A DNA stretch of 19,185 nt from Kofleriaceae bacterium (GTDB lineage: Bacteria; Myxococcota_A; Polyangia; Haliangiales; Haliangiaceae), in NCBI GenBank assembly GCA_965215005.1, contig CBDCCZ010000025.1, positions 1 through 19,185 on the forward strand, in the 5' to 3' direction. Under the pieces are notes generated by a model. The model searched no databases, was not told where the DNA came from, and saw only the letters and a list, made by a program, of their open reading frames with translations. Below, one piece after another: positions 6,210-19,185 of this stretch. Position numbers and translations under genes: made by a program. The stretch's first letter is position 1; every line of letters begins with the position of its first letter.

Positions 6210-6632
6210 TCAGGGGACGCGGGCGGCGCGCGCGAGGTGCTCGGCGGCGTCGCGGTAGCGTCCTAGCTTCGCGCAGACGCGGGCTCGGCCGGCGGCGGCC
6301 CGCGCTTCATAGCCCGGCGTGGAGGCCGCTCGTTCGAAGGCCTCCTCGGCGGCGGCGAGCTCACCGATGACAGTGAGAACATCGCCGAGAGTCGACCATA
6401 GAAGAGCGCGCTCGCTTGCGGTTCTTGCCTGCACGAGACCGACGCGCAAGACGGCGCTGGCTTGGTCGCCGCGGCCCACGCGCGCCAGTGCGATTGCAAA
6501 CGCGCAACGTGCCGAGGTGAAGCTCGGCGCCAACTCCACGGCGGCGGCGAGCGACTCGATGGCGGTGTCGGCGTTGCCACGTTCCAGCGCGGCTCGACCA
6601 CGCAAGTAGTAGCGTCGGGCCGCCGTACTCAC
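6210..6632 (-). CDS. tetratricopeptide-repeat protein
   Basis: TPR-like helices YYLRGRAALERGNADTAIESLAAAVELAP, LWSTLGDVLTVIGELAAAEEAFERA and AKLGRYRDAAEHLARA. GTG 6632 was chosen to avoid overlap with the upstream gene; the start is uncertain. Confidence 0.85.
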   Translation of the reverse strand: MSTAARRYYLRGRAALERGNADTAIESLAAAVELAPSFTSARCAFAIALARVGRGDQASAVLRVGLVQARTASERALLWSTLGDVLTVIGELAAAEEAFERAASTPGYEARAAAGRARVCAKLGRYRDAAEHLARAARVP

Positions 6633-6660
6633 GAGAGCTGCTCGCGCTGCATCAGCCGCA

Positions 6661-7404
6661 TCAGTCGAGCTCCAGCAAACTGAATCGAGTGGTGGCATCG
6701 TCCGAGGACGGCTCGGCCGGAGAAGCGCTGGTGGCTGAATCTTGCGCCGCCCCACTCGCTCCGCGTGCGCTCAATGCATCCCGACCAGCGGTTTCGGGGC
6801 TGGAGCTAGCCGCCGGCGAAGGCGCCGCGGCCTGCGTTACGCGGACGCCCTCAGACGCTACCGCACTCGCCATCACTTCACGCGCACTGGTTGTGGCATC
6901 CGCGCTCCCCGCACCACGAAGCGGCACCTCCGTGGCAGGCGGCGGCGCTGGTTGAGCAGCGGCGGCTTCGGCTCGTTCCACAGGTGCTTGGAGCGGGTGC
7001 AACGCGCCCGCGGCACGAACCAACACGCGGTCGCCGGAGACTTGAAAGAGCGCAAGCTCCGGGTGATCGAGCCGCGTCTGCAGCGCCGCGATGAGCTCCG
7101 CGAAGCTAAGCGTCGCCAGGTCCTCGAGCTCGGCAGCCGGCGGCAACCGCATGGGTGGCGGACCTTCGACCACGTACTCGCGAAGCACGAAGCCGAGAAT
7201 CTGGCGCAAGGTCGCGGCATCGTAATCGGCGAGCGCGGACTCGAGATCCGTTGAGAGAAGGCGCAGATCCAATCGCTTGTTCACAGAAACGCTCCGCTGA
7301 ACGCAGTCTCGAGCGCCCGCGCCAACGGCCTTCGATGGCTCGCATCGAGACGTCGCTTGCTGCTCCACCTCTTCGCTGACGAGCTCTTCACGAGGTTGCT
7401 CCAT
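6661..7404 (-). CDS. hypothetical protein: helical N-terminal domain, Ala/Pro/Ser-rich linker, C-terminal RFSLLELD peptide; likely start GTG 7284
   Basis: Co-oriented ORF inside the cluster. The ordered region NKRLDLRLL...DRVLVR is followed by a low-complexity linker and a short ordered tail DDATTRFSLLELD. Confidence 0.75.
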   Translation of the reverse strand: MEQPREELVSEEVEQQATSRCEPSKAVGAGARDCVQRSVSVNKRLDLRLLSTDLESALADYDAATLRQILGFVLREYVVEGPPPMRLPPAAELEDLATLSFAELIAALQTRLDHPELALFQVSGDRVLVRAAGALHPLQAPVERAEAAAAQPAPPPATEVPLRGAGSADATTSAREVMASAVASEGVRVTQAAAPSPAASSSPETAGRDALSARGASGAAQDSATSASPAEPSSDDATTRFSLLELD

Positions 7405-8101
7405 CGACGTCGGCGCCCTCGGTTTGGCAACCTACGAGCCTCGCCCCAGCGAGCGCCGCGGCGCTGAGATTGACACCGCGCAAATCGCAACGAATGAGCA
7501 AGGCACCGGCCAGGGACGCGGCATAGGCGTTAACGTTGCGCAGATCGCACTCGATGAGGGTAGCGCCAGCCAGCTGCGCGCGCGTTAGCGATGCGGTTCC
7601 GCCAGCCTCAAAGCTCACGCCCACCAGAATGGCACCTGCGAAGTCGGCGCCAAACAGCTCCACATCGCTGAGTCGCACGTGCGCCAAGCGCGCCTCGCGC
7701 AGCCGTGCCCGCCCCATCCGCAGCGGTCCCAGCTGGCAGTGCGCCAGGTGCGCGCCCTCGAGATCGATCTCCGTGAAGTCGCATCCGGCCGCGTCAACCC
7801 GTTCCCAGAGCGCGCCGCGCCACGTCGAGCGGCGGCCATCTACGGCATTGAATCGCGCCTCCACGAGCTGCGCGCCGTCGGCTTCGACGTCTTGCAGATC
7901 GACAGTATCGATGACGACGCGGCTCAGAGCGGCGTCGGCCAGCATCACACCGGCTGCCGAAAAGCCACGCAACGTCCGTCCCTCGAGTCGACGCTCGGCG
8001 TGTAGCGCCAACAGCTGGTGCCGCGTCTGCACCACGTCGAGCTCGTCCACAGATTCGCTCACGAGCTCACTCGCCGGCGCCAAACCCTGCGCGCTCTGCA
8101 A
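7388..8101 (-). CDS. pentapeptide-repeat protein
   Basis: Repeated A(D/N/x)Lxx units: IDLEG AHLAH, ARLRE ARLAH, ADFAG AILVG, AQLAG ATLIE CDLRN, CDLRG VNLSA AALAG. Start is TTG 8101 or GTG 8062. Confidence 0.9.
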   Translation of the reverse strand: MQSAQGLAPASELVSESVDELDVVQTRHQLLALHAERRLEGRTLRGFSAAGVMLADAALSRVVIDTVDLQDVEADGAQLVEARFNAVDGRRSTWRGALWERVDAAGCDFTEIDLEGAHLAHCQLGPLRMGRARLREARLAHVRLSDVELFGADFAGAILVGVSFEAGGTASLTRAQLAGATLIECDLRNVNAYAASLAGALLIRCDLRGVNLSAAALAGARLVGCQTEGADVDGATS

Positions 8102-17650: not shown

Positions 17651-18523
17651 GGAGTCCCCTCGTCGACTTCGTCGACCACCTCGGCGTCGATACCGATTCC
17701 CGACCGCAGCCCGATCGCAAAGAACTCGCGCAGCTGGCTATCGTCCTGGTCGGCCTCGAACTGCAGATAATGATGCGTGTGCGCTGGCTTCTCCATCTGA
17801 ATGATCTGATGGATGCGGATGATCATCTCGGGCGAGACATCGGTAAACTTGATGGGCATCGTCACTACGAACGAGTTGGCCAGCGAGACCGGCGGCAAGA
17901 TGACCGAGTCGAGACCTATCCGTGCGTCGGCACCAACACGAAATCCGCGAAACGGCCAGGTGTTCTCGACGATGTCGGGCTCGAAGCCAGTAAACAGCAG
18001 TAAGAACAGCGCCAGCCCGCGTTTGGTGCCGCGGATTCGATACAGATCGACGGCGCGTTTGATGATCGCCCGTTGCTTGACCTCCGGCCAATCCATGTCG
18101 GTCACCAAGGCCGTCCATGACGCCAGCCATGGCAAGAAGTCCGGCGGACATTGGTGGGGGTCGAAGAATACGTGACCGCTCTCGACGACTTCTTGCAGGC
18201 CGCCAAACAAGTGCTCGAAGACAAAGCAGATATCGCGCACGACGTTGCGACCAACGGCGTCGGAGCGGCGATAGATGGCCGGCAACATCTCCATATAGCC
18301 GCGGCGAGCAACCCACACGGTGACGGTGCTGTTGCCATAGACCATCTGCCCACGGCGCGGGGCTCTGCTCGAGAACGGTGTCGTGGTCCTCGTAACTCTC
18401 GCGGAACAGCACGGTATCGAGCCTCAGCCCGGCAGATTCGATCAAGATGCGCGCCTTGACGAGCGGCATCGCAGCCACATCGGGCATGCGAACGACGCGA
18501 CGATTGTGCAGCTCAGCCACCAT
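17647..18523 (-). CDS. PASTA domain fused to a phage P2 gpI-like tail/baseplate protein, interrupted by a +1 frameshift at about 18354-18355
   Basis: Frame 1 (from 18523) reads MPDVAAMPLVKARILIESAGL...TVLEQSPA, the first part of a PASTA domain. Frame 2 continues RGQMVYGNSTVTVWVA (end of PASTA), then LPAIYR...FDP...FLPWLASW...LYRIRGTKRGL...EKPAHT (Tail_P2_I-like). Removing one C restores QSPARGQMV. Confidence 0.85.
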
Positions 18524-18525
18524 CG

Positions 18526-19185
18526 CTATAGAATCTCGTCGCGCACTTTCTCAGCGACATGCACGTGGATGAGATGCGGCAGCTGATCGTGGTCGATGCG
18601 AACGTGCTCGACGTGCACGCGCCGCTCCTCATCGTAGATATCAAGGGCATCGACACCCTGCACGCCGGGAATCTCTTCGATCAGATGGATGAGCTCGGTC
18701 TTGAGAATGGCTCTGCCAAATTCCCACCCTGACTCATCGCGCCCACCGGTCAACGGGTGCAGATATCTGCGCAACAGCGCTTCGATCTGCCTGCGCAGTT
18801 GATCCGAGGTGCCAACGGTGCGGCGCAGAAGCGTGACTCGGAGCGATACGTCACGGTAACGCGGCGGCAAGACGTGAAGGATGGTTCCCACCAAGCGGCG
18901 CTCGTCGAGGTATCGCTGGATGTAGCGCAAAACCTCAGCCGAAGGGACCAGACGTCTCGAGCCGAGATCTGATTTGGTTTCCGCTTTCGGAACGACAATC
19001 AAGTTGACGGCGCCGCGATTGGAGCGATCCGCAACGCACCGCGCTCGCGCCAGTGCAGTGGACGCCCGCAGCGCCAGCATCTCGAAGTCTTCGGCGGTAA
19101 CCGCTCGATCACGACTCTTGATGGTGTGCGGCGCGCGCTGCTTGGCCTCGGCCACCGTCTCGCGATCTGCTCCGCCCTGAGCGGG
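18526..19185 (-). CDS. baseplate assembly protein, gpJ-like (Afp11/Pvc11-like), C-terminal part; 5' end lies outside the window
   Basis: The frame is open to the window edge: PAQGGADRETVAEAKQRAP...RDRAVTAEDFE...LIVVP...YLDERRLVGT...YLHPLTGGRDESGWEFGR...IPGV, the typical eCIS baseplate-J C-terminal motifs. Confidence 0.92.
   Translation of the reverse strand, partial: PAQGGADRETVAEAKQRAPHTIKSRDRAVTAEDFEMLALRASTALARARCVADRSNRGAVNLIVVPKAETKSDLGSRRLVPSAEVLRYIQRYLDERRLVGTILHVLPPRYRDVSLRVTLLRRTVGTSDQLRRQIEALLRRYLHPLTGGRDESGWEFGRAILKTELIHLIEEIPGVQGVDALDIYDEERRVHVEHVRIDHDQLPHLIHVHVAEKVRDEIL

Follow-up and report, generated by a model that had tools for sequence, protein, structure and literature searches.

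What kind of machine is encoded on contig CBDCCZ010000025.1 of a Kofleriaceae bacterium (GCA_965215005.1), where baseplate and appendage genes share one gene run with four FHA proteins and a Ycf46/DUF1257/DUF2997 triad, and do all these genes belong to it? The window analysed here is the entire contig (C25, 19,185 nt), and C40 is the adjoining contig of the same genome. The original prediction had proposed an extracellular contractile injection system (eCIS)-like machine with a dedicated FHA scaffold and membrane adaptors. We found that the locus represents a widespread and conserved contractile injection system (CIS) lineage which, judging by gene content, has a membrane FHA platform and phosphorylation genes of its own. 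New here are the conserved kinase-PP2C block that converges on the operon, the lack of the phosphothreonine-binding Arg in FHA1-3 against its presence in FHA4, and the Pvc15-type ATPases in other places of the genome. The tie of this CIS to the Ycf46 module is suggestive. The system also reaches beyond the block first described, taking in C40:1-19082 upstream and window positions 3-2778 downstream.

Fourteen genes follow each other on the minus strand from 19185 to 6210, from baseplate J through a TPR gene (open reading frame and Pfam domain calls), just as originally described. The Pfam search of the window proteins recovered all the named domains: Baseplate_J, PASTA with Tail_P2_I, four FHA, AAA, DUF1257, DUF2997, eCIS_core (DUF4157), pentapeptide and TPR. 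The stop/start overlaps, described as many, are present at 5 of the 13 junctions (ATGA three times, TAATG and TGATG once each); most of the other junctions have gaps of 2-35 nt, and the start codons of the last three genes (pentapeptide, U247 and TPR) are uncertain. With a rough gene caller, runs of at least 14 co-oriented genes make up 9 of the 1630 runs in this genome. The order conserved in relatives is, at the sequence level, a stronger proof against chance than this statistic. Promoter and terminator scans gave chance-level results. In NCBIfam, TIGR02241 and TIGR02242 matched above the cut-off, as did TIGR02243 for an intact relative, and the CIS12 and CIS13 matches were below threshold. 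In the window a frameshift interrupts the PASTA/Tail_P2_I gene, which is a single frame in L011, L021, L023 and L041; the baseplate J gene lies in several frames on C40 and in one frame of about 1010 aa in relatives. Both frameshifts are probably assembly errors near the contig ends, which is probable and not provable, since the one public DNA run that matches 6000-17150 without a difference barely covers 17150-19185.

The other half of the machine is found on C40. The end of the window and the start of C40 are identical over 16 bases, an overlap lying midway in the baseplate J gene, and the gene run of both contigs is contiguous in three relatives (G244, G289 and G114). On the same strand, C40 carries Pvc16, a sheath, a tube-like protein, a Mu gp41-like chaperone (a weak match), a second sheath and a tube, continuing with a 1359-aa Ala-rich frame, CIS_tube, the hub, a pair of gp5 genes, a Cys-rich frame of 77 aa, gp25 and the beginning of J. 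Both sheaths are of the Phage_sheath_1 type, the Pvc16 cap matches PF14065 (E 4e-17) and the CIS_tube initiator PF19266 (E 2e-27). The 1359-aa frame has no Pfam match and sits where the tape measure is expected. Of the parts to be looked for beyond position 19185, sheath, tube, gp25, hub/spike and Pvc16 are present, bearing out the eCIS-like machine. Sheath, tube, hub/spike, gp25 and J are clustered, here over two contigs, and go together with Pvc16 and CIS_tube, an appendage after Tail_P2_I, and DUF4157, which are the marks of an eCIS. No PAAR tip was recognised in the locus (there is one sub-threshold PF13665 match on C54, and PF05488 was not part of the search).

In this 92.8% complete genome there is no match to the terminase PF03237 or to two type VI secretion system (T6SS) families, TssC sheath (PF05943) and TssL (PF09850). 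TssM (PF14331) is absent from this genome and from 6 genomes of the same order, matching in 3 of 22 genomes overall. The look for terminase, TssL and TssM that had been proposed gave no match in this genome, TssJ not having been searched. The genes scanned in the locus and its flanks include no capsid, portal or terminase (of these, terminase alone was searched genome-wide), and the genes beyond Pvc16 are ordinary host genes. The ATPase of the locus is not a ClpV of the ClpB clade, matching Cdc48/p97/VAT. A prophage remnant would account for the phage-tail homology and could suit the frameshifts in two baseplate genes of this assembly, but the lack of a PF03237 match, the ordinary host flanks, the CIS-specific Pvc16 and CIS_tube, and the presence of the intact system, inherited vertically at family level, in 104 of 401 genomes make it extremely improbable. 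Because C40 supplies a cap, two sheaths, tubes, hub, spikes and gp25, the locus is by its gene content a full CIS, neither a prophage nor a classical T6SS; that it is a true CIS we take as practically certain.

Around these upstream genes some further features were observed. The second gp5 gene (L078:3723-6278, C40) has a long Gly/Ala repeat and an acidic repeat tail and, as many related contigs begin just downstream, this suggests that its repeats break assemblies. The 77-aa gene before gp25 (L078:3096-3329, C40) is zinc-ribbon-like, has no family above the cut-off and is present in 64 of 77 loci and most other families. Two stand-alone genes far from the CIS (C23:133964-135220 and C4:45408-46466 of this genome) contain two tube-like (PF06841) domains each.

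To which of the neighbouring genes does this CIS extend? A first set of 77 loci was compared, with counts per locus, some genomes being fetched by several routes and kin not being independent. FHA1 comes after the 512-aa appendage gene (F512) in 62 of the 68 first-set loci having 1.5 kb downstream. In other genomes of the phylum sample, F512 loci keep the gp25-J-gpI-F512 order, and FHA genes, beginning with FHA1, follow F512 in 19 of 34 loci, without the block headed by FHA4 and Ycf46 (module B) and in most cases with a gene for signal peptide, vWA, transmembrane (TM) helix and FHA. FHA genes likewise follow F512 in 7 of 7 additional loci of Myxococcota type and in all 5 loci titled Zixiibacteriota or Ignavibacteria (F512-FHA1-membrane FHA), four of which have a kinase and PP2C in the same gene run. 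Since both FHA1 and the membrane FHA gene follow F512 without module B in other lineages, they belong to the CIS, and by this conserved order module A consists of the CIS, F512, FHA1 and the membrane vWA-FHA gene, a linkage that recurs in other families and in Zixibacteria. It is very probable that FHA1-3 are dedicated to the CIS. For the proposed FHA scaffold with membrane adaptors, the linkage is supported for the FHA/membrane genes, which follow the appendage in many lineages, and not as stated for the FHA4/Ycf46 block, which is unlinked in nearly all loci outside the order.

Phosphothreonine-binding FHA domains have conserved G-R and S-x-x-H motifs. The phosphothreonine-binding Arg is present in 2/86 FHA1, 1/75 FHA2, 2/80 FHA3 and 78/81 FHA4 domains (loci partly redundant), so that among the four FHA proteins FHA4 alone has the canonical binding motif. 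Ahead of the FHA domain, FHA1 and FHA2 each have a K-T motif whose Thr is invariant (47 and 59 sequences, respectively). The predicted structure of FHA2 (predicted local distance difference test, pLDDT, 89) has fold matches to vWA and FHA, its outer vWA domain being the most variable piece measured (median identity 0.27). Among Zixibacteria-type CIS, L253-L257 end with FHA1, a 740-aa secreted/membrane FHA protein, more FHA genes, a kinase and PP2C, and adjoin a ribosomal protein gene. Rearranged loci were also seen: in L024 the TPR gene is followed by another copy of F512, and L035, L037, L042, L045 and L048 have unrelated genes after F512 instead of the FHA block.

In the predicted structure of F512 (pLDDT 93), a shoulder, a helical neck and a jelly-roll head can be distinguished. 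The top Foldseek match is TssK 5y0e (E 4e-7); comparison with TssK 6n38 (VIA) gives Z 10.7 and a root-mean-square deviation (rmsd) of 8.9 over 254 aligned residues, and with IglD Z 10.1, the TssK/IglD likeness spanning residues 8-316. The head is similar to CBM35 4qb1 (Z 11.1, rmsd 2.5, 120 aligned) and to CBM35/CBM6 in general (Z about 11). The fibre gene of the original prediction encodes, according to the predicted structure and Foldseek, a short TssK-like protein and not a long fibre. The head has a median identity of 0.69, against 0.68-0.69 for the baseplate core (gp25, J and gpI), and in other families 0.45 against 0.40-0.47. Such conservation of the head is easier to reconcile with a constant partner than with a prey receptor that changes, although a conserved glycan would do equally. 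The predicted complex of the head with the FHA1 and FHA3 domains scored 0.21 against a mark of 0.32. The nearest named relatives of F512 are from Kofleriaceae and Haliangium (61-79% identity), including the cultured Haliangium ochraceum (75% identical, ACY16112.1), which places the organism probably in Haliangiales; the Ycf46 of H. ochraceum is not among the 120 matches listed.

In Haliangiales-type relatives, Ycf46 comes after F512 in 40 of the 43 first-set loci having 9 kb downstream, so that the gene order, whose conservation in other Myxococcota was to be tested, is conserved in these relatives. DUF2997 was found in 118 of 401 genomes, and 40 of those places were examined, 6 in the same order and 34 outside it. 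All 6 loci of the same order are linked to the CIS. Outside it, 33 of the 34 have no tail gene within the up to 20 kb fetched, while in 22 an FHA-coiled-coil gene precedes Ycf46, and in 7 PP2C lies close by, next to pentapeptide genes. As it is unlinked to tail genes in those 33 loci, module B (FHA4, Ycf46, DUF1257, DUF2997, pentapeptide, U247, TPR and PP2C) is by gene neighbourhood a module of its own, separate from the CIS, with an old and widespread triad. DUF4157 is inside it only in the window's order. The original prediction would not have survived an FHA/Ycf46 block routinely found away from tail genes, and for the FHA4/Ycf46 block this is the situation outside the order; general physical linkage does not hold.

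What is left is a weaker form of the link, co-occurrence in genomes together with a second linkage. Across the 401 genomes, F512 and DUF2997 are both present in 100, F512 alone in 4, DUF2997 alone in 14 and neither in 283, in a table that leaves out 8 weak F512 and 4 weak DUF2997 rows. Of the 14 genomes with DUF2997 only, 7 were examined and none has the FHA4-type module. A looser tube family is present in 197 genomes and, since 85 of them lack DUF2997, this gene tracks this CIS lineage and not any CIS. Two genomes, G044 and G291, belong to sister families that the RpoB tree places far from the window's order. In both, the triad stands one gene upstream of, and in the same orientation as, the Pvc16-sheath-tube genes of a divergent CIS; by its different gene order, this arrangement is a second and independent linkage of module B and CIS. 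In the loci concerned (L145 of G044, L108 and L146 of G291), an unknown gene of about 860 aa stands with the triad directly upstream of Pvc16, and a second hub gene follows F512. The Ycf46 and F512 distances are correlated (r 0.73-0.78, and 0.51-0.64 after RpoB removal, with one marker, 18-25 genomes and no significance test), which is not used as proof of co-evolution. On balance we lean towards module B serving this CIS.

Within module B, the Ycf46-type AAA, DUF1257 and DUF2997 genes are adjacent and co-oriented, which makes them a Ycf46/Ycf35/DUF2997 module. The closest solved structures (PDB) of the Ycf46 protein are Cdc48, VAT and p97. Ycf46 and U247 share a C-terminal tail, R-x(1-3)-L-E-hydrophobic, a pattern derived from these two and present in 3 of 4483 called proteins, two of which are Ycf46 and U247 themselves; the two tails also resemble each other in L081, L083 and L084. 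The U247 tail may have some likeness to MIT-interacting motifs. No family was found for U247 in Pfam, NCBIfam or Atlas (Atlas leads <0.9).

Past the TPR gene, the kinase, U240 and PP2C genes (window 3-2778) are convergent on the operon, a block that the original prediction left out. Kinase and PP2C are directly past TPR in 4 of 5 same-family genomes, the best match back being the window gene in 4 of 4, and PP2C is beside the operon also in G394. U240 has no family in Pfam and Atlas leads below 0.9. Between PP2C and TPR, positions 2926-6017 of the minus strand contain an IS200-like (Y1) transposase, a GDSL lipase whose start is lipoprotein-like, and an unknown protein of 429 aa. As this segment is not at this place in five relatives, it is probably an insertion. 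A repeat search in 2700-6300 gave short chance-like pairs only, with no repetitive extragenic palindromic (REP) array beside the transposase-like gene.

Table. Features of the window, in order of position
Feature	Positions	Strand	Basis or remark
Ser/Thr kinase with Thr-motif linker and hydrophobic C-terminal helix	3..1157	+	PF00069; 5' end off contig
U240, between kinase and phosphatase	1082..1804	+	Same place in G244, G289 and G114
PP2C-type Ser/Thr phosphatase	1966..2778	+	Pfam; conserved neighbour
Short TPR protein	6210..6755	-	True start probably near 6635
U247, conserved N-terminal domain, disordered linker, conserved C-terminal tail	6661..7404	-	True start probably near 7290
Pentapeptide-repeat protein of module B	7388..8101	-	Pfam and module context
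Stand-alone DUF4157 (eCIS_core), HExxH, no toxin extension	8151..8750	-	PF13699, E 6e-20
DUF2997	8750..8962	-	PF11211
DUF1257 (Ycf35 family), begins MSH	8972..9379	-	PF06868
Ycf46-type AAA+ ATPase, Cdc48/p97-like, C-terminal R-x-L-E-L tail	9379..10986	-	PF00004; source names SpoVK/Ycf46/Vps4
FHA4, canonical FHA, low-complexity linker, long coiled coil	10983..13364	-	Module B starts here
FHA3, N-terminal membrane helix, zinc ribbon, non-canonical FHA	13433..13888	-	Domain and motif analysis
FHA2, signal peptide, extracytoplasmic vWA, one TM helix (351-369), non-canonical FHA	13903..15414	-	Invariant cytoplasmic Thr
FHA1, soluble zinc ribbon and FHA	15411..16076	-	No phosphothreonine-binding Arg; invariant Thr before FHA domain
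F512, 512-aa baseplate appendage	16112..17650	-	No Pfam match; CIS13_fam N-terminal match below cut-off; predicted structure
PASTA + Tail_P2_I (gpI/Cis12/TssG-like) wedge	17647..18523	-	PF03793, PF09684; TIGR02242 above cut-off; frameshifted
Baseplate J/Cis11-like wedge protein, C-terminal part	18526..19185	-	PF04865, E 4e-13; TIGR02243; gene starts on C40

Neither the window nor C40 has a Pvc15-type (WHD-AAA) ATPase. Elsewhere in this genome there are three such genes, one beside a DUF4157 gene, and 9 eCIS_core matches. Both families are present in 22 of 22 genomes tested, with 1 to 72 eCIS_core matches per genome, so cargo and loaders appear, from these matches, to be dispersed in the genome. 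The highest number belongs to G149 (72, against 1-27 in the other 21 genomes). At C60:175233-180490 of this genome an orphan DUF4157 gene stands beside a Pvc15-like WHD-AAA ATPase with a long N-terminal extension.

How would such a machine work? We tentatively suggest, with a little less than even confidence, a vertically inherited CIS of Haliangiales and many uncultured Myxococcota-type lineages that would be docked at the membrane and fire under phosphorylation control, all steps being drawn from composition, position and conservation. The particle would assemble in the cytoplasm, its DUF4157-type cargo being loaded by Pvc15-type ATPases encoded elsewhere. The non-canonical FHA1, FHA2 and FHA3 could form a phospho-independent scaffold at the inner membrane, where the baseplate would dock through F512, and the variable outer vWA domain may sense contact. 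The kinase would phosphorylate the invariant Thr motifs of FHA1 and FHA2, to be read by the canonical FHA4 and erased by PP2C, and FHA4 would bring the Ycf46 ATPase, which may remodel or recycle the apparatus. The likely use is contact killing of prey or rivals. A bolder form, which we consider unlikely, is that of a T6SS re-invented from an eCIS in Gram-negative predators, with F512 docking on an inner-membrane vWA-FHA platform that replaces TssJLM, a kinase/PP2C/FHA switch firing on contact, and Ycf46-Ycf35-DUF2997 recycling in the place of ClpV. If true, about a quarter of the sampled phylum genomes would have it as their main contact weapon, and the long-orphaned Ycf46 triad would gain its first substrate.

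Several observations weigh against membrane docking. There is no TssL or TssM match (TssJ was not searched), and the passage of the tube across the cell's own wall and outer membrane is unexplained. No FHA genes were found behind F512 in 15 of the 34 other loci (some at contig edges) and 6 of the 68 first-set loci, and FHA domains and kinases are common in this genome (21 and 135 matching segments). The predicted F512 head has a carbohydrate-binding fold, as expected for the receptor-binding fibre of a released particle, and in the accessible part of PMC12923769 the published eBAP3 fibres are TssK-like too. The machine could then be a conventional eCIS, released by lysis, its CBM35-like (or CBM6-like) F512 head binding target glycans, and the FHA, vWA and kinase genes controlling its making or release rather than the place of firing. 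Pvc16, CIS_tube, DUF4157 and Pvc15-type ATPases are all eCIS markers, and the appendage stands behind Tail_P2_I as in the eBAP3 systems (PMC12923769, accessible part), so this reading agrees with much of the gene content, as with the missing TssL and TssM. It is made somewhat unlikely by a head that matches the baseplate in conservation over many families, in contrast to the varied fibres of that paper, by membrane FHA genes directly behind F512 in two phyla, and by the flanking genes examined, among which no lysis gene was recognised (no dedicated search was made). A self-directed intracellular CIS, as in Streptomyces, in which CisA-like membrane proteins fire into the cell's own membrane in programmed death, for example in fruiting-body development, would agree with the Tail_P2_I-type wedge and the TIGR02241-02243 matches, the single-pass membrane genes directly behind the baseplate (the cisA position) and the unmatched envelope channel (TssL, TssM). 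We regard it as quite improbable, since the large dispersed DUF4157 sets (22/22 genomes) and the Haliangium PVC-type toxins (PMC3482391, accessible part) point to outward conflict, and the Streptomyces CIS has no fibre while this one has an appendage.

Doubt falls also on the part given to module B. The Ycf46 triad occurs in cyanobacteria, plastids and phages without such a machine. The trees of RpoB, Ycf46, F512 and baseplate J all yield one set of family clades, so shared descent alone could account for the co-occurrence; G134 has F512 with no Ycf46 match, and the Zixibacteria-type loci have no triad within 10 kb. Two unrelated modules could therefore be at hand, the CIS with FHA1-3 on one side and, on the other, a general signalling or remodelling module B that became adjacent once in the ancestor of the order, which would fit either firing mode. 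The unlinked loci elsewhere, trees that all follow family descent, the 14 genomes with DUF2997 and without F512, and G134 agree with this. We consider it possible and lean to the other side, as 100 of 104 F512 genomes have DUF2997, a differently ordered second linkage exists in G044 and G291, DUF4157 is inserted in module B in this order, and tube, F512 and DUF2997 are jointly missing from G324, a genome of the same family. Our first idea, that the Ycf46 triad replaces the Afp15/Pvc15 cargo-loading ATPase missing from the locus, came from the lack of a WHD-AAA gene in the window and C40, the Cdc48-like Ycf46 and the DUF4157 gene directly behind DUF2997. It was dropped once three Pvc15-type genes turned up elsewhere in the genome, such genes being present in 22/22 genomes, and is now very doubtful.

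The CIS lineage is present in 104 of 401 sampled phylum genomes and in whole families (29/29 in f23), and like a core machine it follows the descent of the families. The killing mechanisms of predatory Myxococcota outside the Myxococcus group are largely open. The mode of action can be tested in the cultured H. ochraceum, whose F512 is 75% identical, and the locus offers a concrete setting for finding the function of the uncharacterised Ycf46/Ycf35/DUF2997 module. Such loci can have been missed in one survey, which discarded clusters that had a fibre and a tape measure and lacked a Cis15 ATPase (PMC12210884). We found no published description of the combination of CIS, FHA and Ycf46/DUF1257/DUF2997; most subscription papers were outside the search, and partly visible supplements could list such loci. 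The papers listed on DUF2997 with DUF1257 are cyanobacterial and do not describe the combination.

The novelty of the combination is in part reduced by PMC8213781, whose accessible tables already count FHA among the shell domains enriched in eCIS operons (35 hits in 4 phyla, odds ratio 5.6), with three FHA per eCIS operon in Roseiflexus. The Ycf46 triad is nearly unrepresented in the same tables (DUF2997 0 hits, DUF1257 1 hit). The main text of the Roseiflexus CIS paper does not mention FHA (PMC12998442), and H. ochraceum is listed in the genome metadata of PMC12923769, as far as these are accessible. With the eCIS or phage-like protein-translocation structures (PLTS) that have Tail_P2_I and an eBAP3 fibre, as presented in the accessible parts of PMC12923769 and PMC8213781, our locus shares Pvc16, sheath, tube, CIS_tube, hub, gp5, gp25, J, Tail_P2_I, appendage and DUF4157. 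It differs in lacking a Pvc15-type ATPase, in an appendage head that is conserved and not variable, and in the addition of vWA-TM-FHA, three Arg-less FHA domains, kinase/PP2C and the Ycf46 triad. The PLTS-like clusters of uncultured Myxococcota metagenome-assembled genomes, mostly UBA796 (PMC11937823), come from the same broad organisms and are tube-sheath clusters without other phage genes. Their tube gene is reported to be highly transcribed and predation was proposed; the accessible text treats them as ordinary released eCIS and makes no mention of FHA, membrane, kinase or Ycf46 genes.

The Ycf46/Ycf35/DUF2997 module of cyanobacteria and red-lineage plastids (PMC13060386, accessible part) has the same three families in one run, including the MSH start described for DUF1257, the uncharacterised Ycf35; here an FHA-coiled-coil gene leads the run and a CIS is tied to it, the function being uncharacterised in both cases. 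With the Streptomyces CIS and its CisA (PMC12237407, accessible part) the locus shares the Cis11/Cis12 wedge type and a single-pass membrane gene directly behind the baseplate, a likeness to cisA of position only. It differs by a Gram-negative host, an appendage, vWA/FHA membrane proteins, two sheaths, and phosphorylation and AAA modules. The haloarchaeal membrane-bound CIS (PMC11566945, accessible part) also has an eCIS-type gene set that acts perhaps like a T6SS via a dedicated membrane gene. There the anchor has six helices, the cell a single membrane and the mode was shown, while here the mode comes from the genes. With the T6SS that has PpkA/PppA/Fha, TssK and ClpV, the locus has in common a contractile tail accompanied by a kinase, a phosphatase, an FHA reader, an AAA+ ATPase and a TssK-like baseplate protein. 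Our locus has no TssC, TssL or TssM match, its sheath and cap are of eCIS type, with a tape-measure-like gene, and its ATPase is Cdc48-like and not ClpB-like, so the likeness is one of parts list and not of membership. The PpkA/Fha kinase switch that controls the T6SS (PMC3953482) is a precedent for the phospho-gating suggested here.

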